Shown here piece after piece: positions 1,103-22,198 of a DNA stretch of 32,000 nucleotides; positions within the stretch are counted from its first letter, which is position 1; each line of letters starts with the position of its first letter. The DNA is from Nitrososphaera viennensis EN76 (GTDB lineage Archaea; Thermoproteota; Nitrososphaeria; Nitrososphaerales; Nitrososphaeraceae): positions 2,340,001 through 2,372,000 of the forward strand of contig NZ_CP007536.1 in the NCBI RefSeq assembly GCF_000698785.1, given 5' to 3'. The position numbers and the translations under genes were made by a program. The notes beneath the pieces were generated by a model. The model had not been told where the DNA came from. It saw only the letters and a program-made list of their open reading frames with translations, and did not search any database.

Positions 1103-1780
1103 TTGAAAGACGGAAAATCCAACATCGCAATATTTGACACGTTCAAGACCCGCCGGAACAAGTTCACCGGCGAGGCCAAGAGGCAGCGGGGCATAATCGC
1201 GCACCTTGCCACCGAGCAGAGCCCGGAGCTGCGCACCCGCACGTCTATTGCGCATGCAATAGCGGAGCAGCACGGGATACTGTGGCAGAACATCTATTCT
1301 GGCATATTCCGCGACCTCGACGAGGTCCTAATCCCCGCCGGCGTGGTGAAGGAGGGAGGCAGGCTGCCGCTCCGCCGCGGGCCAAAGGCGCTCCAGCTTG
1401 AAGGCGTGCCTTTTTACGAGCTTACGGACACGGGGCTTCTCGTGGCGTCTTCGATAGAGGAGCTTGGCGACAAGCGCATGGGGCTTTTAAAGTCGTACGT
1501 GTCGTCGCTTCCCGCAAACGACGCGCCATGCAAGGCCATGAAGGACGGCCTGCTGCTCTTGATAGAGCGTGCCCCGTCGTTTGTGACAAAGGTCATCAAC
1601 GAGTACATCTACGCCTACAGCACGGGCCTGATAAGCAGCATAGCGCCTCTTGAGACGAAGAAGCTGCGCTCCGTCATTGCAAAAGAGATTGCCGTGGAAA
1701 AAGAGCTCGTCGAGGCGTTTTCCGTGTTCTCGGGCGAGCAGAAGGACCTTGCGCGCAACTTTTTCAAGGTAATGACTTGA
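1103..1780 (+). CDS. Hypothetical protein, possibly a winged-helix DNA-binding protein
   Basis: The 225-aa ORF starts at TTG, with an in-frame stop just upstream. Composition is protein-like, and the segment TRTSIAHAIAEQHGILWQNIYSGIFRDLDEVLIPAGVVKEGGR looks wHTH-like. I recognise no family. Confidence 0.55.
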   Translation: MKDGKSNIAIFDTFKTRRNKFTGEAKRQRGIIAHLATEQSPELRTRTSIAHAIAEQHGILWQNIYSGIFRDLDEVLIPAGVVKEGGRLPLRRGPKALQLEGVPFYELTDTGLLVASSIEELGDKRMGLLKSYVSSLPANDAPCKAMKDGLLLLIERAPSFVTKVINEYIYAYSTGLISSIAPLETKKLRSVIAKEIAVEKELVEAFSVFSGEQKDLARNFFKVMT

Positions 1781-2564: not shown

Positions 2565-4238
2565 ATGCCTGAATTGCATGAAGGGCAAGAAGTGAACCGC
2601 GATTTGGAAGACCCGTCCCAGCTTAAAGAGCAGATCGCCTTCAAGTACATCAGCAGTAGTGAATCCCCTGCAGAATTCAAGCGGCCGTCGCGCCTCCACG
2701 TGGCCAGAATCATACTAAAGCTGCTTCCTGTGGCGCTGAACTTCCGCAGGGACAGGCGGGAATGGGTAAAGCACGAAGGCCGCAACGTGGACGAAGAAAA
2801 GTACAGAAAGCATGCAAGACGCGCGCTCAAGACCTTCCTCGAGCTGGGGCCTTCGTACATAAAGCTGGGCCAGTGGCTTTCCACGCGCGCCGACATGCTC
2901 CCCCTTCCGTACATGGAGGAGCTGTCCAAGCTGCAGGACGACGTGCCGCCAGCGCCTTTTGAGCAGGTAAAGGGGATGATTGAGACAGAGCTTGGCGGCA
3001 AGATAGAAGAGGCCTTTGAGTCGTTCAACACGGTCGCGCTTTCAGGGGCGAGCCTGGGCCAGGTGTACCTTGCAAGGCACGACGGCAAGGACGTGATAGT
3101 AAAGGTCGCAAGGCCCGGCATCGAGGAATCTATAGAGAAGGACATCTACATCCTGAGAAAGATACTGCCGCTTGCCACAAAGTTCATCGACCCGAACCTG
3201 CGCTTTTCAGCTGAAGGGATGCTTGCACAGTTTGCAGAAACGGTGCACGAGGAGATGGACTACAGGATCGAGGCCGAGAACCTTGTGACCATAAGGCAGA
3301 ACCTTGCCGACGACAGCACCGTGCTGATACCCCGGGTCTATCCTGAAAGGACTTCAAGGCACGTGCTGACGATGGACTATTTGCCTGGGACCAAGATCAC
3401 AGACATCGAGGAGCTGGACAGGATGAGGATGGACAGGGAAAAGCTCGTGGTCCGCGTCCACAGGCTGTTCTTCAAGATGCTCCTGCGCCACAACATCTTC
3501 CATGCCGACCCGCACCCCGGCAACATCTCGGTATCAGGCGACGGCAAGATAATACTCTACGACTTTGGAATGGTGGGCCGGCTGGACAACGCGACGCGGT
3601 TAAAGCTCATCCGGCTCTACCTGGGGCTGGTGGAAAAAGACGCCGGCCGGACCGTAAACGTGCTGATGGAGCTTGGGACCTTGGAGCCCAATGCAAACAG
3701 GTACGTGATAGAGAAGGCCATAGACCTCAGCATACAGTCGCTCTATGGCCGGCAGGTGGACAAGATGGAGGTCAAGGCGCTCATGGACCTTGCAAACAAG
3801 ACCATGAGCAGGTTTCCCTTCAAGCTGCCCAAGAACCTTGCGCTTTACATGAGGATGACCTCCATCCTGGAAGGCATTTACCAGCACCACAGGGTGAGGT
3901 TCCAGTTCATCAAGGTGCTTGCAAACCTGCTTGAAGAAGAAGGCCTGATACGGGAGGCCTACATAGAGGAGGCCAAGTCCTCCGTGCAGCGCATCCGCAA
4001 GTCGGTCGAGGCCGCTATGAATCTCGGGCAGTTCCTGCAGTCTGCGTACGACTCTGTCCTTTCTGGCAAAACCGGTAACAACAATAATAACAACAACCTG
4101 ATGGCCGGCTCTATCCTTGCAGCAAGCTTGTTCATCGGCTCGTCGATAATCTATCCGCAGAATTCCCTTGCCGCGTACGCGGGCTTTGGGGCCGCCGCGG
4201 TGACCATCGCAGTATCAATATTTAAAAGAAAATCATAA
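2565..4238 (+). CDS. ABC1/UbiB-family atypical protein kinase with C-terminal membrane anchor
   Basis: Family motifs are present: ELGPSYIKLGQWLSTRADMLPLPYMEELSKLQDDVPP, ASLGQVYLA, VKVARPGI, FHADPHPGNI and ILYDFGMVG. The C-terminus is hydrophobic. A run of 7 Asn lies near the C-terminus. Confidence 0.9.
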   Translation: MPELHEGQEVNRDLEDPSQLKEQIAFKYISSSESPAEFKRPSRLHVARIILKLLPVALNFRRDRREWVKHEGRNVDEEKYRKHARRALKTFLELGPSYIKLGQWLSTRADMLPLPYMEELSKLQDDVPPAPFEQVKGMIETELGGKIEEAFESFNTVALSGASLGQVYLARHDGKDVIVKVARPGIEESIEKDIYILRKILPLATKFIDPNLRFSAEGMLAQFAETVHEEMDYRIEAENLVTIRQNLADDSTVLIPRVYPERTSRHVLTMDYLPGTKITDIEELDRMRMDREKLVVRVHRLFFKMLLRHNIFHADPHPGNISVSGDGKIILYDFGMVGRLDNATRLKLIRLYLGLVEKDAGRTVNVLMELGTLEPNANRYVIEKAIDLSIQSLYGRQVDKMEVKALMDLANKTMSRFPFKLPKNLALYMRMTSILEGIYQHHRVRFQFIKVLANLLEEEGLIREAYIEEAKSSVQRIRKSVEAAMNLGQFLQSAYDSVLSGKTGNNNNNNNLMAGSILAASLFIGSSIIYPQNSLAAYAGFGAAAVTIAVSIFKRKS

Positions 4239-4345: not shown

Positions 4346-7300
4346 ATGCACGTGCAAGCTGCTGCCGACGTACAGGAGATATTCTGGGTCTCGTATACCG
4401 TGCTGGAAGTCAACCAAGGCGACAACCTAGAAGACGTCCTGCAGAAATTTGCGACCATAATCAACGTGCAGCTGACCCTGCAGGAAGACCAGAAATTCCC
4501 CTTCGTCCCGTTCAATGGCTTTGAAAACGCCAAGAAATCAAGCAAGGTGTTCCTGTACGGGCCAAGCGGGTGCGGCAAGTCAAAAGCCATCTTTGAAATC
4601 ATCCGGGAAAGAATAGCCCGGATAAAGCGCATCTACATCATAAACCCGAGGCAAACACTCGGGGGCGAATCGGGGAGAACAGCCCTCTCTAACCTGCTCA
4701 ACAAGGTCGGGCCGGAAGACGCGGTGGTCTGGGACAACTTTCCTGACGACCTTGTAAAAAGGGATATCAAGAGCGCGACAAGGGTGCTGGAGCTTGTCAG
4801 CTCAAGGGACCTGAACAACCTCCTGGTTGCGCTAAAGCCAAGGTACCTGGAGATCTACCGCGAGATCACCGACGCCGTCCCGGAATTCCACAGCGCCGAG
4901 ATATCCTACGACAAGGGCCGCTTCAAGAAAATCATTCAAGAGTATGGCGCGCAGATATCGCAGTTTCACCGGCTATACGAGGGCAACATAGCAAGCCGTA
5001 TAGAGGGCGTCTCCCGGGCGCTCTGGAGAAAAGAGCCGATACCGATAACCATACTTGATTATTACCGCGAGCTTTCCGGGAAAGAAGAACAAGGCGACAA
5101 TAAAAATTCCGTTAACGCGGTTGCAGAAGCAGAGAAACTCTTGCGCGCCGGCGACTATTACGAGAGCCAGTTTGCCTTCATCGCCCGTGCAGACGAGCGC
5201 CGGGAAGACGCCGAGTTCCTCTACACTCTGAAGCTGTGTTATGAGGCGGGCCTTGGCAGGACGTTTGGCCGCATAGAAAAGTTGCAAAAGGGGATATTTG
5301 GCAGCCTGCCGCCGAGGGACCCCCTGCGCAGGCTGGGCACGTGGGTCTACCTCTCCGGCCAGGACTATGCGATGCACGACGCCCGGAAGGACGCGATAAA
5401 ATTCAACGACCACGTGATGCTGAAAATCGTAAACTACCTTGTGGGCAATTTCCGGGATGTCCTTCCTGCAGAAAACAACCAGATCTATTCATTTGGGATG
5501 TTCCTGGGCAAGCACGTCCAGTTCGTACCGCGGGACACGTCGCAGCCTTTCCTTCCTGCCAGCGTTTACGGCTTTATGAAAGAGAATCGATATTTTACGA
5601 TGGGGTTTGGCCAGGGCGCCGGCTCGATCTTCCTTTCGCTGGACGAACCGCTCCAGCAAGGCATACTGCGGAGGGTGGAAGTGGACATCGAGTTCACGCG
5701 GGGTCTGTGCGAAAACCTGGGATCAAACTTTTCTCTGTTCGATTCGGAAAACCAGGGAAAAATCCTGGGCATGACAACAAGCGGCCTGCCGTTTGCAAGG
5801 TACCTTGGAGAAAGCCTTGGAACCCATTTTTTCTCCCTGCCCCTGAAGCTCAGGGAAGAAATTTCCAGGAGGGCCAGAAAGAACGTGCAGTTTTCAGACG
5901 GCCTGGGGATGGGCATGGGGTACATCATGCCTCTTCTGGATGAAAACTTGCGGCAGGATGCGTTCAAAAAGGCAGAAAATGACAGCGAGTTTACAAGAGG
6001 GCTCGGCTACGGCCTGGGCCGCAATTTTCCTTCAATTCCTGCAGACTTTAAAGCCAGGATCTTTGAACTTGTCGAAAAGGACCGGGAGTTTGCAAAGGGC
6101 CTTGGCTACGGCATAGGGTTTCAATTCGAATCATTCACTCCGGAATTCAAAGCCCGGCTGTTTGAGCTTGCAGAAAAAAACAGCGAATTTTCCTACGGCC
6201 TGGGCATCTTTTTTGGCTTTGCATTCTCGTACCTCTCAAAACAGATGCAGGATCAAATGCTCGGGGTGGCAGAGAGGCACAGCGAGTTTGCTTACGGCAT
6301 GGGCATGGGAATAGGATACCTTTTCGTATACCTGACTCCGGAGCTGCAAGGCGAGATTCTTCAAAAGGCAGGCAAGAACGCCAAGCTGACCTATGGGATA
6401 GGATCGGGCTTTGCTTTTTCATTCAAGAATTCGCCCCCGGAAGTCCAGGACGATATCCTTGCGCGGATTGAAAAGAACAGCGAGCTAACGTACGGCCTTG
6501 GCTACGGCCTTGGATATGTGTTTCCCTACCTGTCAGGCGAGCAGCGGGAACGCAGTTTCCAAAAAGCCGGTACGAACCCGCAGTTTGCAAAGGGATTTGG
6601 CATGGGCATAGGGCGAATTTTTGCGTACCTCGACAGGTTCCATGATGAAATCTTTGACAGGGCCCGGGCGAACCCGCATTTTGCAAAGGGTCTGGGGTCT
6701 GGCCTCGGGTACGTTTTCACTTATTTTCCGCCAGGCCTGCGCGAAAAAATCACTGCAAGGGCGGAGGCCAATCCAGAACTGACGTACGGCCTTGGCACCG
6801 GCTTGGGCTTTACTTTCTCTTATTTCAAAAAAGAGGATCAGGACCTTTTCTTTGAAAAGATAATACATGATGCCTATTTCGCCCGGGGCCTTGGCACCGG
6901 CCTGGGCTACGCCTTTGCCTATCTCCAGCCGGACACCCAGAAACACGCATTTGCCCGGAGCCATGAGAACGTGCAATTTGCGATTGGGATGGGCGAAGGC
7001 CTTTCCAGAATCTACTCCTATCTTGATGAAAAGACCCAGAATGAAATTCTCAAAAAGGCCGTTGCAGGAAGCGGCCTCGCAAGAGGCCTGGGCCGCGGTT
7101 TTGGCTCTGTATTTCCGTATCTTGATGCCGGCATGCTTGGAACCGCTGGCCGGCATGCAGAGACGGACGGGCAGTTTGCAAGAGGCCTGGGCGAGGGCCT
7201 CGGCACCATCTTTCCTTACCTGTCACCTGACACCCAAGCCCGCGCCTTTGAAAGGGCAAAAAATAGCGCCCAGTTTAACATAGGCCTTGGCACCGGCCTG

Positions 7301-8098
7301 GGCTACATCTTTGCCCATCTGACGGGTGACATCCAGACACTCATCTCTGCAAAAGCCCGGAACGACGCATCCCTTGCCCGGGGCCTCGGCACCGGCCTGG
7401 GCTACATCTTTTCCTATCTTGGCGGCACGCTCCAGAAAGATTTTCTCGACAGGGCAAAACAAGATCCGTCCTTTTCCCATGGCCTGGGCTCCGGCATAAG
7501 CTACGGGCTTGCTTACTGTCCAGATGACTTGAAGAAAGAGGTTGTCAGATATTCAAAGAGCGACCCGCATTTTGCCACCGGCCTCGGCACCGGCCTCGGC
7601 TACATCTTTCCATATCTTCCGGGGCCACTGCGCCAGGAATTGCTCGGCCTGGCAGAACAGCATCCAAGCTTTGCCACCGGCCTCGGCACCGGCCTCGGCT
7701 ACCACCTCCCGTCATTTACCGAGCAGCTGAAGGAGGAGATCATTGGCTGGATAGACAAGGACAGCAACTTTGCCACCGGCCTCGGCACCGGCCTCGGCCG
7801 CTCATTCCAGCACCTCGACGGGATAACGCAGCGGGGAATCCTCGACTGGATAGACAAGGACAGCAACTTTGCCACCGGCCTCGGCACCGGCCTCGGCCGC
7901 AACCTGCCTTCGCTTGCCGAGCAGCTGAAGGAGGAGATCATTGGTTGGATAGACAGGAACAACAGTTTTGCAACCGGCCTGGGGAAGGGGCTGGCCGACA
8001 GCTTTCAATACCTCGACGGCGAGCTGCAGCGCAGAATCGCGCTCTTGGCCCAAAAGAACCGCGCTTTTGCATCGTCCCACCAGTTCAAGATTAGCTAA
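4346..8098 (+). CDS. Giant P-loop NTPase with a C-terminal array of about 25 tandem 33-aa GLGxGLG repeats; function unknown
   Basis: The ORF is an uninterrupted 1250 aa. Walker A is LYGPSGCGKSKA (aa 70-81) and a Walker B-like motif is AVVWDNFPDD (aa ~126-135). A helical-looking middle region spans about aa 140-415. From about aa 416 to the end there are 33-aa repeats with consensus xFAxGLGxGLGYIFPYLxxxxQxxhhxxAxxNx. Confidence 0.85.
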   Translation: MHVQAAADVQEIFWVSYTVLEVNQGDNLEDVLQKFATIINVQLTLQEDQKFPFVPFNGFENAKKSSKVFLYGPSGCGKSKAIFEIIRERIARIKRIYIINPRQTLGGESGRTALSNLLNKVGPEDAVVWDNFPDDLVKRDIKSATRVLELVSSRDLNNLLVALKPRYLEIYREITDAVPEFHSAEISYDKGRFKKIIQEYGAQISQFHRLYEGNIASRIEGVSRALWRKEPIPITILDYYRELSGKEEQGDNKNSVNAVAEAEKLLRAGDYYESQFAFIARADERREDAEFLYTLKLCYEAGLGRTFGRIEKLQKGIFGSLPPRDPLRRLGTWVYLSGQDYAMHDARKDAIKFNDHVMLKIVNYLVGNFRDVLPAENNQIYSFGMFLGKHVQFVPRDTSQPFLPASVYGFMKENRYFTMGFGQGAGSIFLSLDEPLQQGILRRVEVDIEFTRGLCENLGSNFSLFDSENQGKILGMTTSGLPFARYLGESLGTHFFSLPLKLREEISRRARKNVQFSDGLGMGMGYIMPLLDENLRQDAFKKAENDSEFTRGLGYGLGRNFPSIPADFKARIFELVEKDREFAKGLGYGIGFQFESFTPEFKARLFELAEKNSEFSYGLGIFFGFAFSYLSKQMQDQMLGVAERHSEFAYGMGMGIGYLFVYLTPELQGEILQKAGKNAKLTYGIGSGFAFSFKNSPPEVQDDILARIEKNSELTYGLGYGLGYVFPYLSGEQRERSFQKAGTNPQFAKGFGMGIGRIFAYLDRFHDEIFDRARANPHFAKGLGSGLGYVFTYFPPGLREKITARAEANPELTYGLGTGLGFTFSYFKKEDQDLFFEKIIHDAYFARGLGTGLGYAFAYLQPDTQKHAFARSHENVQFAIGMGEGLSRIYSYLDEKTQNEILKKAVAGSGLARGLGRGFGSVFPYLDAGMLGTAGRHAETDGQFARGLGEGLGTIFPYLSPDTQARAFERAKNSAQFNIGLGTGLGYIFAHLTGDIQTLISAKARNDASLARGLGTGLGYIFSYLGGTLQKDFLDRAKQDPSFSHGLGSGISYGLAYCPDDLKKEVVRYSKSDPHFATGLGTGLGYIFPYLPGPLRQELLGLAEQHPSFATGLGTGLGYHLPSFTEQLKEEIIGWIDKDSNFATGLGTGLGRSFQHLDGITQRGILDWIDKDSNFATGLGTGLGRNLPSLAEQLKEEIIGWIDRNNSFATGLGKGLADSFQYLDGELQRRIALLAQKNRAFASSHQFKIS
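5591..8065 (+). repeat. In-frame tandem repeat array with 99-bp period, about 25 units
   Basis: I parsed the repeats by hand from the translation; 24 units are 33 aa and one is 32 aa. The DNA core ggcctcggcaccggcct(c/g)ggctacatcttt recurs at 99-bp spacing, for example near 6889, 7276, 7381, 7579, 7680, 7778 and 7877. Confidence 0.9.
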
Positions 8099-8129
8099 AC
8101 TTGCTCCTCACCTACTTATAAGCATCTGA

Positions 8130-8942
8130 ATGCAGATTAGCGGTGGCATGAGTTCGACAATTGAGGACGGCGGCGGTGACGATGATGATTATGGTGGAGA
8201 AGAAGGACTTGACGACTTTCCGATAGTGGGCTCTGCGCAGGAGATCCTGGACGACAAGCCATCAGCTTCATCATCTTCTTTTGACTTTCCCGCGGAGGAA
8301 GAAGTGTCCTTCTCTGGCAAGAGCGAGAACTATTGCGTGTGCTTCATAGACATGGTGAACTCGACCGTCGTCACGTCAGGGCTGGCCTCTGCCAAGCTCG
8401 TCAGGTACTACTCTATCTTCCTAAACGCCACGGCGGCAATCGCCAAGAACTTTGGCGCAAAGGTGATAAAAAACGCCGGCGACTGCCTGATATACTATTT
8501 TCCTGCCACGTCCGACCCCGCAAGCAATGCTGCATTCTCTGACGTGCTTGAATGCTGCACGGCCATGATAGACGCCAACAAGGTCATCAACGCCAGGCTC
8601 AATACAGAGGGCCTCCCGCCGCTCGGCTATCGGATAAGTGCCGATTATGGAAAGGTGGAAGTGGCCCGGTCGGCAACTTCCAACAGCGACGACCTGTTCG
8701 GGTCGACGATGAACCTGTGCGCCAAGATAAACTCAAAGGCCCCAAAGAACGGGGTGGTGGTAGGGGCAGACCTGTACAGGGTGATCCAGTCCATCCCCGC
8801 GGTCGCCGAGCTGTACAATTTTGAGCAGGTCTGCTCGTATCTGGTCGGCCCGGAGCAGCAACAATACCCCGTGTTTTCCGTCGCAAGGCGGCAAAAAAGG
8901 AACATCGTCAACCCCTTCAAGGTAATGCCTGCAAGAAGCTAA
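8130..8942 (+). CDS. Stand-alone class III nucleotidyl (adenylate/guanylate-type) cyclase domain protein with an acidic low-complexity N-terminus
   Basis: Class III cyclase motifs occur in order: CFIDMVNST (metal Asp), KVIKNAGDCLIYYF (second Asp), YRISADYGKVEVA, DLFGSTMNLCAKINS and NGVVVGADLY. The N-terminal ~60 aa are Asp/Gly/Ser-rich. The start could instead be the ATG at 8148, with a TATA-like cttataag at 8115-8122. Confidence 0.8.
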   Translation: MQISGGMSSTIEDGGGDDDDYGGEEGLDDFPIVGSAQEILDDKPSASSSSFDFPAEEEVSFSGKSENYCVCFIDMVNSTVVTSGLASAKLVRYYSIFLNATAAIAKNFGAKVIKNAGDCLIYYFPATSDPASNAAFSDVLECCTAMIDANKVINARLNTEGLPPLGYRISADYGKVEVARSATSNSDDLFGSTMNLCAKINSKAPKNGVVVGADLYRVIQSIPAVAELYNFEQVCSYLVGPEQQQYPVFSVARRQKRNIVNPFKVMPARS

Positions 8943-10715: not shown

Positions 10716-10816
10716 ATAAACGACAAGCTTCTCAAAAATTTAAGTACATGAGTATGGCCGTTCTGGTACTGGCTTCTCTCGGTGCATTCCTGAAAGACAA
10801 TCAGTTAGTCAGTCAA

Positions 10817-11245
10817 TCAATCAATGTCAAGTCTCGCGGCAGCAGCCGCGCGCTCTTTTTGGCCGGCTGCATAGTTGAGGAAAATTTTCCCTGCCGTCGA
10901 GCCGGCAAGGCATCCTGCTATTATGGCATCCCTGGCGGCATCTGTGGAGCTCTTGCCATCCTCCTTGCGCTTTCTGTAAACTGCCCTGCCTACAAGCGCC
11001 GCCGCTGCGGCGCCTACGAGGTATTCTGGCGCGTCGGCCAGAAGGTGTCCAAGCGGGTCCTTGCGCGGGTCGACCCTGTCCATGTGCGCCGTGTAGTAAG
11101 TGCCATAGTCACGTATGTGGAGGTTGCCGTACCTGTACTGTTTTTTGGCGCCTTTCTTGCTTCCAAGGGACGTCTCCTCGATGCCTATTATCGGCCTGAC
11201 TGCTTTTGGGATGATGATGTTGCCGTCAGGGTCTACAAAATCCAC
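10817..11245 (-). CDS. Hypothetical protein
   Basis: The 142-aa ORF has a natural composition (HIRDYGTYYTAHMDRVDPRKDPLGHLLADAPEY). I prefer it to the overlapping + ORF 10748..11257, which is Cys/Arg-rich and shadow-like. Confidence 0.55.
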   Translation of the reverse strand: MDFVDPDGNIIIPKAVRPIIGIEETSLGSKKGAKKQYRYGNLHIRDYGTYYTAHMDRVDPRKDPLGHLLADAPEYLVGAAAAALVGRAVYRKRKEDGKSSTDAARDAIIAGCLAGSTAGKIFLNYAAGQKERAAAAARLDID

Positions 11246-11559
11246 GGCCGAAAATAGGCCGGTTTCGGATATAAAACTAGCGAATCAACGAATTTATCTT
11301 TCGATTTTGTTGCGTAACAAGAGGCGGCCAGAACCGAGCTAATTTTATATGCAATATGCTTAGAGGGCTAGATAGAGACCTGTATCCCAGTAGAAACAGA
11401 TGAATTTGTATGGTTCTGTTCTTGGCTTTACACAAAGAGCTTCCACTAATGCCATCCTGCTTCAAATTAGAAAACAGTATCCTATAGGGTTCGTTGGTAA
11501 TATGAATTCTAAAAATGGCTGGTTGTGCAAGAAACAGTCACTGATAATGGGCAAAGAAT

Positions 11560-12210
11560 TTGAGGCTGGGCCTACAACAGGCTAAAATAGGACTATCCAA
11601 AAACACGGTTGTGAAATTACTCATCCTAATTGTGATTGGAATATTCCTTGCGCTTTCATCCGGCATTTCTATCGCCCATGCAGATCATCTCCCACCGTCT
11701 TGTGTCCGAGACATAACTGGTGGCCCAGATGTGCCTATTGATCCTGAATTGAAGTATCAGTTCGGTCCGAAGTGGGGTGTAACAATTGAGGGTCAGGTTC
11801 GCTCTTTCTCCTATGACGGGCATATCCACAACGCCACAGCTAACGTAGAAAAGCACTCTCTTAATTTCAATGTAGATAGCAGTTGCTTATTTCTCAGACT
11901 TTCCCGCGACCTGATCGACTCTACTCAAAATGGGCAAGATGTTCCTTTCACCGTTTTGGTTAATGGTCAGGTGAGTGAGGACGTAGTAGAGGATGTCGTG
12001 CCTTCTACGGGCGATAGAGTGCTGTCCATAAAAATACCCCAAGATTACTCGAATGTGGAGATAATCGGCACTACAATCGCTCCTGAGTTTGGTGCACTCG
12101 CAGCCCTTCTCGTACCGTTAGCAATGGCAGGAATCGTGGCATACTCGACGATTTTTCGCAAACACAGGGGCAGCTTACCAAGTCAGAAAGACTTGTCGCA
12201 AATTAATTAA
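11560..12210 (+). CDS. Secreted protein with a PEFG-CTERM-type archaeosortase sorting signal
   Basis: It has an N-terminal signal-like segment (LLILIVIGIFLALSSGISIAHA). The C-terminus is APEFGALAALLVPLAMAGIVAYSTIFRKHR, giving the PEFG motif, a TM helix and a basic cluster. G+C is lower than in its neighbours (about 47% in one 60-nt spot count). Confidence 0.7.
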   Translation: MRLGLQQAKIGLSKNTVVKLLILIVIGIFLALSSGISIAHADHLPPSCVRDITGGPDVPIDPELKYQFGPKWGVTIEGQVRSFSYDGHIHNATANVEKHSLNFNVDSSCLFLRLSRDLIDSTQNGQDVPFTVLVNGQVSEDVVEDVVPSTGDRVLSIKIPQDYSNVEIIGTTIAPEFGALAALLVPLAMAGIVAYSTIFRKHRGSLPSQKDLSQIN

Positions 12211-12239: not shown

Positions 12240-12782
12240 TTGCCGGTCAAAGTTATTGCAAGCAGGCGCGTCTACAGGGGCGCCATCTCGCTCCGCAAGG
12301 ACAGGTTCTCGATAAACGGCGGGAGGGTGGTCGAAAAAGAGATAGTCGAGCACCAGCCGTCTGTCGGCATCATCGCTGTAACAGGCGACGATAGCATCCT
12401 CCTCGTGAGGCAGTACCGGCGTGCCCCGGACAAGACGCTGCTAGAGATCCCTGCCGGCAAGATAGAGAAGGGCGAGACGCCGAGGCAGGCGGCTGTTCGC
12501 GAGATGGACGAGGAGATCGGATACGCCGCCGGCAAACTGGAGCCCTTTCTCAAATGGTACCTTGCGCCCGGCTATGACACCGAGCTCATGCACCTGTTTG
12601 TCGCCACAAACCTGAAGAAAATAAAGAAAAGGCGCGCGATGGACGACGACGAAGATATAGTCACGAAAAAGGTCAGGCTTGCCGCCGCCGTGAAAAAGTG
12701 CCTCAACGGCGAGATAGAGGACGCCAAGACCATAGCCGCAATCATGGCGTACGCTTCTTCCTCATCATCAAAGCCACTCTGA
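12240..12782 (+). CDS. Nudix hydrolase, ADP-ribose pyrophosphatase-like
   Basis: The Nudix box is GKIEKGETPRQAAVREMDEEIGY, and the NudF-like context LLVRQYRRAPDKTLLEIPAG is present. The start codon is TTG. Confidence 0.85.
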   Translation: MPVKVIASRRVYRGAISLRKDRFSINGGRVVEKEIVEHQPSVGIIAVTGDDSILLVRQYRRAPDKTLLEIPAGKIEKGETPRQAAVREMDEEIGYAAGKLEPFLKWYLAPGYDTELMHLFVATNLKKIKKRRAMDDDEDIVTKKVRLAAAVKKCLNGEIEDAKTIAAIMAYASSSSSKPL

Positions 12783-13784
12783 CTGGACCGGCTGGTACAC
12801 CTTTTTCCTTGCGTCCTCGAGGCTGCTGCGCTCTATTATCAGCCCCTGCCTCTTCAGGTCGTCGACTGCCGCCTGCACAGTCCTCCTCGGCAGGTGGCTA
12901 AGGCTGATGAGCTCGCCCTGCTCCACCGGGTGCTTGGTCTTTATTATGTAGTAGATGAACTTTGACGCCGGCCCGCCCTCCGGGTCCTTGCGTATGTACG
13001 AGACGCCAAACGCCGATTTTGACAGAAAGCCCCTCCTCTGCGACTCGACGGAAGCGATTGCGTCCGGGTGGACCTCTGCAAGGTTGACGCGCTGGCCAAA
13101 CTCTGCCATCAGGGCAGACTGCTGCGATTCAAGCGGCGCCTCAAAGATGAACGTGCTTGGCGGGTACTCGTTTGTCATGGCGCCTACAAAGCTCCATTTT
13201 ACGAGGCCTTTTTCGTCGTATATGCCGACGTTATAGCCCTCGTTTGCCTCGATGACCACCTTTTTAGAGTCGAGTTTCACTGCCTCGTCGATCTTTTTCA
13301 GGGTGTCGTCGATCCCAAGCTGGTGCCTTGGGTCCTTCTTGCCCACCTTCCACTGGTATTCCAGGCCTGCCGCCTTGATTGCCTCCGTTATCTTTTTCTT
13401 CTGGGCCATCGGCAGATCGATGCTGCTCTCGCCTATCTCGACCATGTCAAAGCCGACCTTTGCAGCCTCCCTTGCAAACCTCTCAAGCGAGCTCTCTACT
13501 ATGGCAAATTCGGTTATCGTGCTTCCCGTCGAGACCTTGATGCCAAAGCCGTGGTAATAGTCGATCTTTTTCTTCAGGCTTTCGTCAGAGACGAGCATAG
13601 GGAGCGCCCCGTACACCTTGACGACGTCTACAAAGGGCGCTATCGTCGCAAAGTTCTCCCTGTCCAGCCCCTGGAACTTGTCGATCGTGCATGTCAAGCC
13701 TTCCTTGCGGGGCTTTTTTGCATCCATCCTGTTCTTGGCAAGGCCGTCGAGCATAGTTCTATATGATATATGCAGATTCTGCAT
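12768..13784 (-). CDS. comA: Phosphosulfolactate synthase (ComA) family enzyme fused to a C-terminal winged-helix domain
   Basis: Strong resemblance to ComA from memory: VEIGESSIDL, VVIEANEG and IFEAPLESQQSALMAEFGQRVNLAEV...SVESQRRG. An extra ~80 aa tail, LSHLPRRTVQAAVDDLKRQGLIIER, looks MarR/ArsR-like wHTH. The true start may be Met11 at 13754. Confidence 0.85.
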   Translation of the reverse strand: MQNLHISYRTMLDGLAKNRMDAKKPRKEGLTCTIDKFQGLDRENFATIAPFVDVVKVYGALPMLVSDESLKKKIDYYHGFGIKVSTGSTITEFAIVESSLERFAREAAKVGFDMVEIGESSIDLPMAQKKKITEAIKAAGLEYQWKVGKKDPRHQLGIDDTLKKIDEAVKLDSKKVVIEANEGYNVGIYDEKGLVKWSFVGAMTNEYPPSTFIFEAPLESQQSALMAEFGQRVNLAEVHPDAIASVESQRRGFLSKSAFGVSYIRKDPEGGPASKFIYYIIKTKHPVEQGELISLSHLPRRTVQAAVDDLKRQGLIIERSSLEDARKKVYQPVQSEWL

Positions 13785-16215: not shown

Positions 16216-17607
16216 CTAGACCCTCAGGCCAAAGCCCCGCAGCCTGCCGTACACTACTGCGCCTGCCACGCCAAGCGACGCGACGAGGGCTGCCACCGGG
16301 AACTCGGGCACCACCTGTATGCTGGACTGGACCGACTCGCTCGTGGCGTTTATCTTTTCGACCCTGACCGTGAAGGAGCCCTGCTTGTCAAAGGCGACGT
16401 CCTGCGAGGAGATGCCTTCCGGCGTCGTCACGCCTCCGCTCCTTGACACTTCCTTTCCGTCGGCATCCTGGATCACAAGCTCGTACGTCGCCGCAGACGC
16501 CGGCTTGCCGTCCTTGCCGGTTATCTTGACCCCAAAAGGCACGGGCTGCTGCGGGAATATCGACTCTGGCATCGTCAGGCTGACGGCATAGCTTGAAGAC
16601 TCGCTCTGGACCTGCATCACTTTTACCTCGCTTTCAGGGTCCGGCGGGCTCAGGGCAAACACCGCCTGGTCAGGCGACCTGTTTTCCGCGTTTATCTTGT
16701 CCCTGAGGCTGAGCAAATGCTGCTTTGAGATGGTAAAGTGCACCACCGTGTTCTCCGCGCCAAAGTTGTCCACGAACACCGGCACGTCAAGGCCGTTTAC
16801 GGTCCCCTTGAGCGATTCCCTGTCAAAGTCGGACAGCGCCTTTGGTATGAACACTTCGGTGTGCAGCATGCCCGTCCTGTTCGCTATCTCTGACTTCCAG
16901 TCGTAGGGCATGGAAAACTGGATGGTCTTGGTCTGCTCGTCGTAGCTTGACTTGTCTATTGCGCCGTAATAGTTCCTGATCTTGACCTGCTGGGTAGAGC
17001 CGCCAGCAGCTGGAACGCTGACTGTCTCCTCCCTGCCCGGCGTCACCCAGACGTCGTACTGCAGGATAGGCTCTACCTGCGTCCTCGTGGTCCCGACAGT
17101 GTGTATCTCTACAAAGAGGTTGTAGAGCCCTGCCTGGGTAAAGACCGGGCCTTCGACCACGATGGGCTGGCCGTTGTTCCAGATTCCCCCGTACTGCACC
17201 TCTGAAATGCCCTTTGCCTGCGCAGCCGGCATGTCCTTCGGGACAATCTTTATCCGCAGGTTGCCGCCTGGATCGTAGAACAGGCCCTGGCCGCCATAAG
17301 CGTCGCCGCCTTCGGTCTGGATCGGTATCTCTTTTCCGTCCTTTTTGAAGAATATCCTGTACGTGACTTCCTTGAAATTCTCGTTGCTGTTTTCGTCAAA
17401 GAACCTTGCCGTAATGAACACGGGCTCGGTCGTGGAGGTGATCACCGGCGGGTCAAGCTTTAGGAAAAGGCTCGCCTTCTTGCCTCCAAAGTCGGCAGCC
17501 GGCGGCTGCATGCCCCCGTGCGCAAAAGCACTCGGGATGAGCGGTACGCCTACGAGCACCGTCGCAAAAAACACCATCGCAAAAATCGCTACAGCCTTGC
17601 TTTTCAT
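16216..17607 (-). CDS. Large secreted protein with a PEF(P)-CTERM-type sorting signal
   Basis: It has a signal peptide (MKSKAVAIFAMVFFATVLVGVPLIPSAFAHG). The C-terminus is VVPEFPVAALVASLGVAGAVVYGRLRG, giving the motif, a TM helix and a basic cluster. The body is rich in beta-strand-like sequence. Confidence 0.8.
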   Translation of the reverse strand: MKSKAVAIFAMVFFATVLVGVPLIPSAFAHGGMQPPAADFGGKKASLFLKLDPPVITSTTEPVFITARFFDENSNENFKEVTYRIFFKKDGKEIPIQTEGGDAYGGQGLFYDPGGNLRIKIVPKDMPAAQAKGISEVQYGGIWNNGQPIVVEGPVFTQAGLYNLFVEIHTVGTTRTQVEPILQYDVWVTPGREETVSVPAAGGSTQQVKIRNYYGAIDKSSYDEQTKTIQFSMPYDWKSEIANRTGMLHTEVFIPKALSDFDRESLKGTVNGLDVPVFVDNFGAENTVVHFTISKQHLLSLRDKINAENRSPDQAVFALSPPDPESEVKVMQVQSESSSYAVSLTMPESIFPQQPVPFGVKITGKDGKPASAATYELVIQDADGKEVSRSGGVTTPEGISSQDVAFDKQGSFTVRVEKINATSESVQSSIQVVPEFPVAALVASLGVAGAVVYGRLRGFGLRV

Positions 17608-18080: not shown

Positions 18081-18155
18081 GGGCGGCTGGTCTAGCTCGG
18101 TTATGATACCGCTCTTACACAGCGGTGGTCGGGTGTTCAAATCACCCGCCGCCCA
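18081..18155 (+). tRNA. tRNA-Val (anticodon UAC)
   Basis: I folded it by hand. The acceptor stem is GGGCGGC/GCCGCCC and the anticodon stem is CCGCT/AGCGG. The anticodon loop CTTACAC gives U33, anticodon TAC and A37. The T arm is GGGTG-TTCAAAT-CACCC and the discriminator is A. CCA is not encoded. Confidence 0.92.
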
Positions 18156-18972: not shown

Positions 18973-19248
18973 ATGATCAGAATGGGAACAGTTGCTTTGC
19001 ACCTTGGCAACGGAAGGGGAGAAGAAGAAGGCTTGCCAAGCGTCATTGTAAAGTGCCCTGTATGCGCAGGGTCAGGCTCTATTCAATGCATCAAAAACAA
19101 CCGCGTCAATCCCTTCTGCCTGTCGCTTCCCCTCGCGACTGAGGAGAGGTGCAACTGCTGCGACGGGCGCGGATGGGTTAGAAAAGAACAGCAGGAATGC
19201 AGTTCCTTCTGCCGCTGCGCCAAGGAGGAGGGAGTAAGTGCAAAATGA
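18973..19248 (+). CDS. Small Cys-rich protein with two DnaJ-type CxxCxGxG zinc-finger motifs
   Basis: It has CPVCAGSG and CNCCDGRG motifs plus additional Cys residues. A TATA-like aaatttatatttt is centred about 24 nt upstream of the ATG. Its stop overlaps the next start (ATGA at 19245-19248). Confidence 0.6.
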   Translation: MIRMGTVALHLGNGRGEEEGLPSVIVKCPVCAGSGSIQCIKNNRVNPFCLSLPLATEERCNCCDGRGWVRKEQQECSSFCRCAKEEGVSAK

Positions 19249-20081
19249 ATTCAAGGATGATAGCCGCGATCTTCATAATTGCGGGGCTTGTGGCAGTGGT
19301 CTATGTCTTTTCCATCGTTCCATACCTGTTTGGCTCCGCAAGGCCGGCCTCGGTGCTGCCTGTCATGCAGATCCTTATCCCTGCCCTGGCTTTTCCGCTC
19401 ATAGCGGTTCTCGTGTTTCTCGTGCCCAGGCGGCGGGTTGCAGCTCAGGCGGCGGTACCTGAACACAAGGTTCGTGACGAGGCAGAATACCGGCACAGGA
19501 TCAGGTCCCTGTGGTCTGGTACTGCCGCAGGCTTTTTTGCAGCGGCGATACTCGTGAGCCTGATAATCGGGGGCGACGCGCTGCTCGGGCTTCCCCTTGG
19601 CACCTTTTATTCCATAATCGGCATCGCGATGGGCGGCCTTGACGTTTCTACTGCGATATTCTTTGGCGCTGTCCTGCATTTGATGATGGGGACCCTGATA
19701 GGCGCGGTGTTTGGCTACCTCACGGCTGTGGTGGGGCCCTTCAACATAACCGGCATGGCAAAGGGGACGGGAGTCGGCATCCTGGCGGGCTTTATCGCGT
19801 TCTCTGTGCTCTTTGTCCCGCTGACCCGGTTTGAAGTGGAACCTTCGCTCGTGAGGATTCTTGCAGGCATTTATCCGCCCGGCACTTCTGCAGACGTCCT
19901 CCAGAACAAGGCCGTCGACCTAATGTCGTCGGTTCTTGCAGGCTCTATCCTCCTGCACGTGGTTTACGGCGCCATCCTAGGCTCGATCACCGCGCTCCTT
20001 CTTGGATTCCCCGAGGGCGAAAAAAAGGAGAAGGAAGACTACAAAACCGACGCCCCTAATCATCGCCTGACAAAGACGTAG
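19245..20081 (+). CDS. Polytopic membrane protein (about 7 TM, Gly-rich helices), hypothetical
   Basis: I chose the start at Met17 of the listed ORF because of the ATGA overlap with the upstream gene, and aaggaggaggg lies upstream. It has multiple long hydrophobic segments. Confidence 0.7.
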   Translation: MNSRMIAAIFIIAGLVAVVYVFSIVPYLFGSARPASVLPVMQILIPALAFPLIAVLVFLVPRRRVAAQAAVPEHKVRDEAEYRHRIRSLWSGTAAGFFAAAILVSLIIGGDALLGLPLGTFYSIIGIAMGGLDVSTAIFFGAVLHLMMGTLIGAVFGYLTAVVGPFNITGMAKGTGVGILAGFIAFSVLFVPLTRFEVEPSLVRILAGIYPPGTSADVLQNKAVDLMSSVLAGSILLHVVYGAILGSITALLLGFPEGEKKEKEDYKTDAPNHRLTKT

Positions 20082-20327
20082 AGCTGAAATAACGCGCGCG
20101 CGTGCCTGTACTTAACAACACAGACACATGCCTGTAATCTAGAAAGCCAAAATCCTTGGATCTCTATGGGAATAGTGGTAATTGCAAAAGCTACTAAAAA
20201 TTGGTGGGGAAACATCAAACTATTCTTATTGGCACATTACAAGGTAATCTCTCTATTTTCTCTACGATGTTTATGACTGATCCGTTAGAGGAAATTATTA
20301 GTCTCAGCCTTGCATAACAAATACAGG

Positions 20328-20447
20328 ATGGACAAGGAACGTAGTAACAAAGATGAACCGGTGACAATCATTGTTACTCGGACGGCCAAAAGAGGCAAAA
20401 TTAGAGAATTTGAAGAATGGCTGGACGGCTCAAAGACCCTCCTCTAA
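20328..20447 (+). pseudogene. 39-codon remnant resembling the N-terminus of an ABM (antibiotic biosynthesis monooxygenase-like) domain protein
   Basis: My own translation gives MDKERSNKDEPVTIIVTRTAKRGKIREFEEWLDGSKTLL*. The VTxxVxRxxKxGxxxEFEEWL pattern is typical of ABM/DUF-type N-termini. It is truncated and overlaps the next ORF. Confidence 0.3.
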
Positions 20448-21440
20448 GAGAGATCGCAATAGGTCACACCACAATAGCTCTTTCGTACAAGGACGGAAAA
20501 TTTGGAGCAATATCGAACATATGTAATCACGTAGGCGGACCTTTGGGTCGCGGACGATTCGATGGTGACTATGTTGTATGCCCATGGCATAACTGGAAGT
20601 TTCACAGAATGACTGGATTTGGTGAGCCAGGTTTCGAAGATGATCGTGTACCACAATATGAGCTCAAGATAGAGAATGGGAATCTCTACATCAACTTCCA
20701 ACCGGTTACGGAAAGAAACAAGCTTCAGCATGCTCCACACCGTCTATCTAGGCCGGTAAAGCGCGAGGAGGGGCCTATCAGGGTTGTTGGCATATCTACA
20801 ACTGCCACGGACTCAAAAAATCCCAGATATTCCACATCTGACAAGCTGCTCGAAATTGCAATAGAACATGCAAGGACAGTTCTAGGAGCACAGACCATTC
20901 TTATTCGGTTGAATGACCTGAAATTTCGAAATTGCGAGGGGTATTACTCCAAGGCTGCCAGGGCATGCACCTGGCCCTGCTCTATTACCCAGATGGACAA
21001 AACTGACGAGCTTGATCGCGTTTACGAAGCATTGGTGCACTGGGGAGACGTTATCATAGTTTCAACCCAGATTAGATGGGGTGCTGCCAGCTCATTGTAT
21101 TACAAGATGGCGGAAAGGATGAATTGCATTCAAAATCAAATCACGATTAGCGACAGGGTTCTGATCCAGAATAAGGTTGCGTCATTTATCTAACCGGAGG
21201 ACAGGATAACATACAGGATGTTGCAGGCCACATGCTCGGATTCTTTGCAGAGCTCGGCTTCGTGTTCCGCCGTTTCCATATATTGCTCATTCCAGAGGAT
21301 GGTCTGCTGAGGACATGGAGGACAACATTGCATACGTGGAAAGGACGACGGATCTGCATGACGGGGCAAAAGACCTTGTGAGACGATGCATAGAAATGGC
21401 AGAATTAATTCTAGGAAAGAAACTATCTGAGGAAAAATAG
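20417..21440 (+). pseudogene. Rieske [2Fe-2S] domain fused to an NADPH-dependent FMN reductase / iron-sulfur-flavoprotein-like domain, disrupted by two 1-nt frameshifts
   Basis: Frame 1 (20417-21193) carries the Rieske motifs CNHVGGPL and CPWHNWKF, then the flavodoxin-like IRVVGISTT...VIIVSTQIRWG, and ends ...VASFI*. Translation continues in a second frame from 21193 (TGGQDNIQDVAGHMLGFFAELGFVF). It continues in a third frame from 21267 (PPFPYIAHSRGWSAEDMEDNIAYVERTTDLHDGAKDLVRRCIEMAELILGKKLSEEK*). Confidence 0.7.
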
Positions 21441-21874
21441 TCCGCCCGGGAAGGAAGGCACAAGCATTGCATATCGAGCAACGAGATAATAATGCAGGCC
21501 AATAGCTCTGGGAATAATGTAAACTGCGGTGCAATGACAGGCAAATCAACAGACCGGGAAAAATACCTGTTGCCACATTCCATAGAATGTCCCACGTAAC
21601 TTGTCCTTTTATCTCGACAAAAAAGTGATGAACAAAGAGATGTTTGGCTCGAGAATCATTGAATTCAAAGAAAATGGACACAGTTTATCGCTGACTAGTG
21701 CTTTTTGTTTTCTCTAACACCTCTTTTGCCCCTGTAATTAGTGAGGCCTATGTCCGCAGCAGTAGATTTGATACATTTCCTTTCCATGGCATAGTCACCT
21801 TTACTCTGGTGTCTTTCAATGTTCTGAAACACTGCTGTATATCTCGGCTACCTCCAAGGTTAATGAATAATACA

Positions 21875-22198
21875 CTAACCAGTGTCAATCGAGATTTCCA
21901 GAGTTTTTTCATCGATAATGACGGGATATGAATGCAGATTGGTGACCCAATCCGTATCAAGAGAGGCTTTTGCTGTGCGTATATCAAATATTCCCTGATG
22001 CCAGGGGCAAACCAGGTTGTAATCTTCTTCTAAAATTCCTTCTTCCAGCGGGCCTCCTTCGTGCGAACATACCGAATCCATGGCATAGAACTTGTCCTTT
22101 ATTTTTGTCAATACAATTGATTTGCCGTTGACATCGACTTTCACGAGTTTGCCCTCTTGCACATCATCCTTCTTTAAAGAAATTTTCGAGACGGTCAC
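21875..22198 (-). CDS. Rieske-type [2Fe-2S] ferredoxin
   Basis: The 107-aa ORF has a GTG start and the motifs CSHEGGPL and CPWHQGIF, about 19 residues apart. This layout matches small oxygenase-associated Rieske ferredoxins. Confidence 0.8.
   Translation of the reverse strand: MTVSKISLKKDDVQEGKLVKVDVNGKSIVLTKIKDKFYAMDSVCSHEGGPLEEGILEEDYNLVCPWHQGIFDIRTAKASLDTDWVTNLHSYPVIIDEKTLEISIDTG

Follow-up and report, generated by a model that had tools for sequence, protein, structure and literature searches.

The genome of Nitrososphaera viennensis EN76 (NZ_CP007536.1) harbours, within the 32,000-nucleotide stretch analysed here (positions 2,340,001–2,372,000 of the forward strand; hereafter the window, in whose own coordinates its features are given), a complete forward-strand open reading frame (ORF; 4346..8098) for a protein of 1250 residues, in which a predicted STAND-type ATPase module is followed by a tandem array of 33-residue units. 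This repeat is real, and its sequence family has so far gone uncatalogued: it is a predicted alpha-alpha solenoid repeat, distinguished by a helix with a double GxxxG motif. The next gene on the same strand (8130..8942) encodes a stand-alone class III nucleotide cyclase of 270 residues. We propose, with a probability of roughly 0.6, that the array serves as sensor arm to a STAND ATPase of the Apaf-1/MalT kind, itself paired with a cyclic AMP (cAMP)-type cyclase, the whole acting as a solenoid-gated switch. Soil ammonia-oxidising archaea drive nitrification, and to our knowledge almost nothing is known of how they sense signals; the locus provides a concrete, testable receptor-to-cyclase module in these organisms, although the principle itself is not new.

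The 33-residue repeat and its sequence family

A unit hidden Markov model (HMM) trained on the obvious copies of the repeat resolved the protein into 25 tandem units, three of them degenerate (units 1–3, aa 416–513, 5591..5887, forward strand; independent E-values of 3e-8, 2e-4 and 2e-6) and 22 canonical (units 4–25, aa 515–1239, 5888..8062, forward strand). The canonical units follow the pattern xFAxGLGxGLGxxFxYLxxxxQxxIxxxAxxNx. The array begins in frame at nucleotide 5591, the first base of codon 416, and ends at nucleotide 8062, with each unit spanning 33 residues save one of 32. Autocorrelation, a test independent of the unit HMM, gave a residue identity at lag 33 of 0.353 in the array, against 0.073 ± 0.009 after shuffling (n = 2000; z = 31), with lags 66 and 99 next best; at the same lag the N-terminal 415 residues scored 0.06. 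Each canonical unit was also recovered by an HMM from which it had been left out, at E = 2e-8 to 7e-20. Further copies of the repeat were not found elsewhere in the window.

Glycine occupies positions 5 and 7 in all 22 canonical units, position 9 in 21 of 22 and position 11 in 18 of 22. An aromatic cluster follows (Y/F/R12, F14, Y16 and L17), then a second helical segment with a core of Q22, I25, F/L26 and A29, and a polar turn at N/D32. An earlier note, made from the letters of the window, had described about 25 consecutive 33-residue units from position 5591, a G-x-G-x-G-x-G pattern, and an aromatic cluster leading into a helix-like segment and a polar turn; the unit count, the z-score and the position counts above bear out all of this.

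The last four units (22–25, 7667..8062, forward strand) form an A-B-A-B module, delineated by unit identities and by Tandem Repeats Finder (TRF), that carries W28 and an RNLPSL/RSFQHL variant. Unit 22 is 76% identical to unit 24, and unit 23 is 55% identical to unit 25; the alternation recurs in the homologue P0001 and in the family consensus. Repetition at the DNA level (TRF period of 99 nt at 7669–7980) is confined to these four units, and the mean amino-acid identity among the others is ~33%, which indicates an old array under protein-level selection. A recent DNA expansion of the whole array was rejected on the same grounds.

AlphaFold2 was run on the repeat region (835 residues, aligned with 63 homologues; model m6071dfa94d8d), and returned a model with a mean predicted local distance difference test (pLDDT) of 92 and a predicted template modelling score (pTM) of 0.91. 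It is wholly alpha-helical, with zero beta strands over the 835 residues, and its regularity matches the solenoid that had been expected. Each modelled unit consists of a 13-residue helix A (xFAxGLGxGLGx), a three-residue helical turn (xYL), a helix B of 12–13 residues and a short polar turn. Helix A contains all four glycines, so that on this model the glycine ladder is a pair of interleaved GxxxG motifs on one helix, and neither a loop nor a beta feature. Reading the glycine run as a beta, loop or P-loop-like element was rejected in view of the confident all-helical hairpin. A transmembrane helix in the glycine/aromatic segment was likewise dismissed, since the model is that of a soluble all-helical protein and helix B is charged. 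From helical periodicity, F2, L6, L10 and F14 of helix A would face the helix-B layer, while A3-G7-G11 and G5-G9 would form opposite small-residue faces allowing unusually close packing between the A helices of adjacent units. FxYL would close the hairpin, helix B would bury Q22, I25, L26 and A29, and N/D32 may serve as N-cap for the following helix. Positions 4, 8 and 12, where residues vary and Tyr, Arg and Thr are frequent, would be exposed.

The repeat families of Pfam, NCBIfam and PADLOC gave zero matches to the whole protein (hmmscan, E <= 10), the Pfam models HEAT, HEAT_2, HEAT_PBS, HEAT_EZ, Arm, TPR and Ank among those without a match, and precomputed Pfam repeat domains were absent from 105 of 105 homologues. 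Searching the unit profile against PDB sequences produced no meaningful match. When it was aligned by hhalign with consensus template sequences, probabilities were 0.2% for HEAT-PBS (alphaRep), 0.05% for TPR (CTPR3) and 0.02% for ankyrin. The beta-strand units expected of LRR, WD40 or pentapeptide repeats are absent from the model. The suspicion that the unit falls outside the known repeat families, and that it is none of TPR, HEAT/PBS-lyase, ankyrin, LRR, WD40 or pentapeptide, therefore agrees with profile searches, hhalign and model alike. One match looked significant by its score: PDB entry 8VD6, a 'CAP repeat' and the single non-cyclase entry matched by the family profile, aligned to positions 1107–1262 of the family profile at E 5e-6. 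This entry is a de novo designed protein with a 33-residue sequence period, made with ProteinGenerator (PMC12339374), and we discarded it as a homologue, attributing the match to a shared period and helix-turn-helix composition. The case illustrates that repeat profiles may give significant-looking matches without homology. A literature search on the repeat motif, and on STAND-cyclase proteins in Thaumarchaeota, did not turn up a description of the family.

At the structural level the array fits stacked antiparallel helical hairpins of the HEAT type. Foldseek against the PDB listed only HEAT solenoids (importin-13, transportin-SR2, CRM1, Kap121, CAND1 and mTOR) with weak scores, the best at E 4.6e-4 (template modelling score, TM, of 0.17) in an overall TM range of 0.12–0.20; against viral models the best array matches were DUF4116 solenoids of giant viruses, at TM 0.11. 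The model thus weakly points to a general HEAT-like alpha-alpha solenoid as the fold class. Shared with HEAT-like repeats are tandem helical hairpins in a long solenoid, a helix A with small residues, and a turn with Asp/Asn ahead of the next unit. In contrast, the period here is a strict 33 residues rather than ~37–47 (HEAT) or ~30–31 (PBS type), the four glycines at i, i+2, i+4 and i+6 create two GxxxG faces, and no profile matches; the low global TM values suggest that the superhelix geometry differs as well. Ankyrin repeats have in common with our unit the 33-residue period, two helices and an Asp/Asn-rich turn, but the TPLH/GH signature and the beta-hairpin finger are missing here and Pfam Ank does not match. 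The repeat is a candidate new Pfam/InterPro family, and its unusual helix with two GxxxG faces should be of interest to repeat-protein engineers.

The full-length protein has 105 homologues at 32–47% identity, with E-values down to 0. The unit HMM, with which 70 of the 105 were scanned, found spacings of 33 residues in 748 intervals, 34 in 97 and 35 in 50, and the array measures ~24–27 units across the family. A profile of all 25 units, searched against 1.84 billion representative proteins, retrieved 220 carriers at E <= 1e-3 (109 at E <= 1e-10 and 44 at E <= 1e-30), many of them short fragments; a profile of two units, used in a word-index search, yielded five short fragments only. Carriers with informative names are archaeal and mostly Nitrososphaeria, the sole exception being a partial protein from a metagenome-assembled genome (MAG) labelled Eisenbacteria, and the named full-length homologues belong to Thaumarchaeota/Thermoproteota, Nitrososphaeraceae and Nitrosopolaris.

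Scanning one genome per GTDB species gave 40 loci, all 40 in archaeal MAGs and none labelled as an isolate. Their labels are mostly Nitrososphaera, Nitrososphaeraceae, Nitrosocosmicus and Nitrosopolaris; two soil MAGs are assigned to Nitrosopumilales, and seven loci have a broader label only (Thermoproteota or uncultured archaeon). Several of the scanned Nitrososphaerales MAGs hold two or three copies, and the closest locus is 86% identical. At three loci (L012 7914–11962, L019 9318–12012 and L010 2753–7471) three or four overlapping ORFs, not all in one frame, stand in place of an unbroken repeat gene, with an intact cyclase downstream, probably through assembly or long-read frameshift errors, or else because these are decaying paralogues.

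The repeat also occurs on other nucleoside triphosphatase (NTPase) chassis, which speaks for its modularity. For example, KAP-family NTPases carry ~8 units (P0215 and P0216), and a protein of Conexivisphaera calida (P0134, BBE42418.1) has nine near-identical units and a P-loop that matches AAA_16/AAA_22 only weakly, below threshold. In another example, P0154 and P0217 possess true TPRs in a separate C-terminal region after the 33-residue array, a placement seen in P0154. The neighbours of these other-chassis carriers include TPR, CHAT, nSTAND3 and IS605 genes. A gene of the IS605 OrfB/TnpB type lies next to the P0134 gene itself, as does one for an nSTAND3+TPR protein, in what looks like a variable, conflict-type region (L043 3100–5661 and 1–366, Conexivisphaera calida AP018732.1).

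The ATPase module and the partner cyclase

Residues 1–415 (4346..5590, forward strand) are predicted to form a STAND ATPase module resembling those of Apaf-1 and MalT. An AlphaFold2 model built from residues 1–520 aligned with 70 homologues (model m71ddecbb14c7, pLDDT 90) shows a nucleotide-binding alpha/beta domain that contains the P-loop, followed by a helical domain; next come a winged-helix domain, in which there is a beta hairpin, and another helical domain that runs into the repeats. Foldseek against the PDB placed Apaf-1 (3shf) at the top (E 3.8e-6), followed by SAMD9 (E 5.2e-5), MalT (8bob; E 2.6e-4, TM 0.38–0.45), Avs5 (E 3.3e-4), Avs3 (E 9.4e-4) and NLRP3 (E 1.5e-3), with STAND proteins, Dark too, ranking ahead of or among AAA+ proteins in the list.

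Motif conservation across 71 sequences is consistent with this fold. The Walker A motif or P-loop, GPSGCGKSK (aa 72–80, 4559..4585, forward strand), has near-invariant G72, S74, G75, G77, K78 and S79. A Walker B-like strand, VVWDNFPDD (aa 127–135, 4724..4750, forward strand), coincides with a modelled beta strand at 126–132 and has invariant W129, D130, F132 and P133. Lastly, an MHD-like motif, YAMHD (aa 341–345, 5366..5380, forward strand), lies at the end of the predicted winged-helix domain, directly after the modelled beta hairpin 335–342; neither its H344 nor its D345 varies, and across the family it reads Y[AS]MHD[SAV]x[RK][END][AS]. We take it as the putative counterpart of the NB-ARC MHD motif, whose His contacts bound ADP. 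The curated profiles NB-ARC, NACHT, nSTAND and AAA_16 gave no above-threshold match to the module, and the family profile found no STAND match among PDB sequences. Sub-threshold P-loop matches were to ATPase_2 (18.3 bits, cut-off 33.2) and Sll1717 (15.5 bits, cut-off 75), and PADLOC returned for the repeat protein only a P-loop match of 14.7 bits.

Apaf-1, then, is the top fold match; with the NB-ARC proteins the module has in common a P-loop and a Walker B, and its invariant His-Asp at the end of the winged helix resembles their MHD motif. It does not match the Pfam NB-ARC profile, and the sensors of Apaf-1 are WD40 repeats, its effector an N-terminal CARD. The resemblance to MalT of E. coli (8bob) extends from the predicted ATPase fold to the order of parts, namely ATPase module, helical-repeat arm and C-terminal output. 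The output differs, however, being a class III cyclase, fused or separate, instead of the LuxR DNA-binding domain of MalT, the repeat family differs from the SUPR/TPR-like arm of MalT, and sequence-level similarity is absent.

The cyclase gene (8130..8942, forward strand) matches PF00211 (E 2.5e-7, 30.9 bits against a cut-off of 21.9), with the catalytic region at aa 64–233 (nt 8319–8828). Its best PDB relative is CyaB (3r5g; family profile E 5.7e-12). All 28 aligned sequences have D74, K114 and D118, and the 27 with a residue there agree on R168, D188, N195 and K199; the metal-binding Asp pair D74/D118, the substrate Lys K114 and the transition-state Asn N195 are therefore conserved in the aligned cyclases. 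An N-terminal linker motif, DFPIVG (aa 29–34), follows the approximate family pattern [DE]-F-P-x-x-G, with an invariant Pro and a near-invariant Phe, in both fused and split forms.

The cyclase frame differs from that of the repeat ORF, and the two are separated by a 31-nt intergenic gap (8099..8129, forward strand), with a TGA closing the cyclase frame directly before its ATG. A programmed frameshift joining both ORFs was rejected because of the position of this TGA. Within the gap, ~14 nt ahead of the cyclase ATG, lies the archaeal TATA-like element CTTATAAG, at a distance too short for a typical leaderless start.

Elsewhere in the family about half of the homologues are ~1600 residues long with the cyclase fused at the end of the array. 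Among the scanned loci the cyclase is either fused or the next same-strand ORF in 27 related loci, and it is present at every one of the 40 that extends far enough. Fused examples are L006, L007, L009, L015, L020, L022, L028 and L031, while it is the next same-strand ORF at L004, L008, L013, L017, L018, L021, L024, L026 and L027. Outside close orthologues it alone keeps its place beside the repeat gene; the window shares its ABC1 kinase and radical-SAM neighbours only with L001, L004, L008, L025 and L027. The recurrence of the split layout implies that the two-gene form in the window is natural, and the pattern of fusion and fission argues for a physical partnership of repeat protein and cyclase. 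We rejected a pseudogene or sequencing frameshift as the origin of the split, since nine or more other loci have the two-gene layout as well, the syntenic orthologues L004 and L008 among them. The natural fused and split forms make the physical coupling directly testable.

Some partner cyclases are longer than the usual ~240 residues, at 404–445 residues (L011 12062–13396, L012 12242–13465 and L014 7685–8896), and the fused protein P0034 has a CheY-like receiver domain (PF00072) after its cyclase; both suggest extra regulatory input in some paralogues. In the mycobacterial proteins Rv0386, Rv1358 and Rv2488c a class III cyclase shares a chain with an NB-ARC-type ATPase and with helical repeats. 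They differ from our system in being bacterial, with an N-terminal cyclase and TPR repeats, whereas the archaeal cyclase is C-terminal or separate. Class III cyclase clusters are reported to be conserved in Nitrososphaeraceae (PMC13577086).

A candidate receptor mechanism and its alternatives

The order observed in the family (ATPase module, 25-unit solenoid, then cyclase) can be read in terms of a mechanism that we infer from MalT and other STAND proteins. The first units would pack on the ATPase module, and the solenoid would hold the ADP-bound ATPase closed. Binding of a ligand to the variable middle of the solenoid would lead to nucleotide exchange and then to oligomerisation, upon which the terminal module or the linker may present the cyclases for assembly into catalytic dimers producing cAMP or a related cyclic nucleotide monophosphate (cNMP). 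Class III cyclases form their active sites across the dimer interface, so bringing cyclase subunits together would switch synthesis on.

The evolution of the array is sensor-like. Between syntenic orthologues it is 37–38% identical, compared to 50–57% for the ATPase module, and identity at surface positions among homologues is 8–19% in units 10–21, compared to 0.23–0.30 in units 1–3 and 23–33% in units 1–4; the faster divergence of the array and the variability of units 10–21 together carry this reading. The earlier note had anticipated a solenoid binding surface, of which the solenoid is upheld by the AlphaFold2 model and the binding surface is plausible. The per-position comparison by which a ligand face was to be located failed to single one out: no position was both variable among units and conserved among orthologues, the homologues (30–40% identity) being too diverged for it.

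Several considerations weigh against a solenoid-gated switch. Assignment of the module to STAND proteins comes from a predicted fold and from motifs, and the profiles of Pfam, NCBIfam and the PDB do not recognise it. Ligand binding and oligomerisation of the repeat protein are presumed by analogy, and association with the separate cyclase of the split form is assumed. Where class III cyclases canonically have their transition-state Arg, the family has the conserved K199, and both activity and product of the enzyme are predictions. How closely the A helices pack, how the array curves and which face is exposed are deductions from helical periodicity.

Among other explanations, one would make the periodicity an artefact of tandemly repeated DNA that is open in one frame by chance, and it is as good as refuted: the 99-nt TRF period at 7669–7980 and several long ORFs overlapping the region in other frames speak for it, but the DNA repetition is limited to the last four units, the others being ~33% identical as protein, the ORF, unit signature and period are kept in 105 homologues at 32–47% identity, and the region is folded by AlphaFold2 at pLDDT 92. 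A question of classification, with which the proposed mechanism is compatible, is whether the unit is an extremely diverged HEAT-like member of the PBS-lyase/HEAT_2 type (~30 residues). In its favour, importin-13, CAND1, CRM1 and mTOR, all HEAT solenoids, are the best structural matches, and the hairpin layout resembles PBS-type repeats (small residues near the end of helix A, a short turn, helix B, an Asp/Asn turn). Nonetheless we consider it somewhat unlikely, as the HEAT, Arm and TPR models are all blank at E <= 10 over 825 repeat residues, hhalign against alphaRep reaches 0.2%, TM to HEAT proteins is 0.12–0.20, and the double-GxxxG signature with its strict 33-residue period is distinctive.

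Two further explanations concern function. The array might act passively, as a rigid scaffold or spacer by which the cyclase is positioned, dimerised or localised, while regulation comes only through the ATPase or other proteins. The conserved array length of ~24–27 units fits this idea, as does the absence of any surface position at once orthologue-conserved and unit-variable; the first units being the most conserved and the terminal A-B-A-B recurring in P0001 and the consensus would suit docking sites better than ligand pockets. In characterised STAND proteins (Apaf-1, MalT and Avs), however, the repeat arm is established as the sensor, and the use of the repeat by unrelated NTPase chassis that have no cyclase is more easily reconciled with a portable module for recognition than with a spacer specific to cyclases, so that we judge a passive role improbable. 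We think it improbable to a similar degree that the locus is an antiviral or conflict system, in which an Avs/NLR-like STAND receptor recognises a viral protein with its solenoid and the cyclase, as effector, raises a second-messenger alarm as in Pycsar-like signalling. Avs3 and Avs5 are among the fold matches, several genomes have two or three paralogues, the surface positions of the array are highly variable, and other repeat carriers adjoin TPR and CHAT genes or an nSTAND3-TPR gene with an IS605 element. Also counted in its favour is that cNMP cyclases have been described as signalling modules in NTP-dependent conflict systems (PMC7159879). Against these stand the PADLOC result, a mere P-loop match of 14.7 bits, the housekeeping nature of the neighbours (thymidylate kinase, ABC1 kinase, radical SAM, NUDIX and tRNA synthetase), and the synteny of the locus across Nitrososphaera MAGs, unlike a mobile defence island; a gene for a cNMP-activated effector was not found linked to the locus.

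Returning to the solenoid-gated STAND-cyclase switch, a broader version would make it a Nitrososphaeria class of NLR-like receptors, in which a lineage-specific double-GxxxG solenoid binds a ligand, possibly a viral or foreign protein, and STAND oligomerisation turns this directly into a cyclic-nucleotide signal by assembling the cyclase, be it part of the receptor chain or recruited as the product of another gene. We offer this only tentatively, at well short of even odds. If true, it would define the first receptor-to-second-messenger pathway in ammonia-oxidising archaea, along with a portable sensor module for several NTPase chassis. For the evolution of STAND and NLR proteins, the predicted module would represent an archaeal branch, restricted to Nitrososphaeria and invisible to sequence profiles, with a MalT-like order of parts and a cyclase output.

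Other features of the window

Upstream of the repeat gene, an ABC1/UbiB-type atypical kinase (2565–4238, forward strand; PF03109, E 6e-73) shows seven consecutive Asn, GKTGNNNNNNNLMAG, immediately ahead of its hydrophobic C-terminal tail. On the reverse strand, 12768–13784 encodes a 338-residue protein with a ComA domain (PF02679, E 9e-64; (2R)-phospho-3-sulfolactate synthase) and a C-terminal MarR-like helix-turn-helix (HTH), the latter matching PF12802 at E 6e-5, below the cut-off; such an enzyme-regulator fusion of ComA and HTH is unusual in a thaumarchaeon.

The G+C content drops to 0.44–0.47 at 11001–12000 and 20001–22000, compared to ~0.54–0.57 elsewhere in the window. Among the ORFs of these stretches are several without a Pfam match (11560–12210 and 21190–21681) and one for a Rieske-domain protein (20417–21193). 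Four further ORFs have no Pfam family at E <= 1e-3, namely 16216–17607 (reverse strand, 463 aa), 19197–20081 (forward, 294 aa), 1103–1780 (forward, 225 aa) and 10748–11257 (forward, 169 aa). The sole RNA gene detected in the window by ARAGORN and Rfam is a tRNA-Val with anticodon TAC (18081–18155, forward strand).

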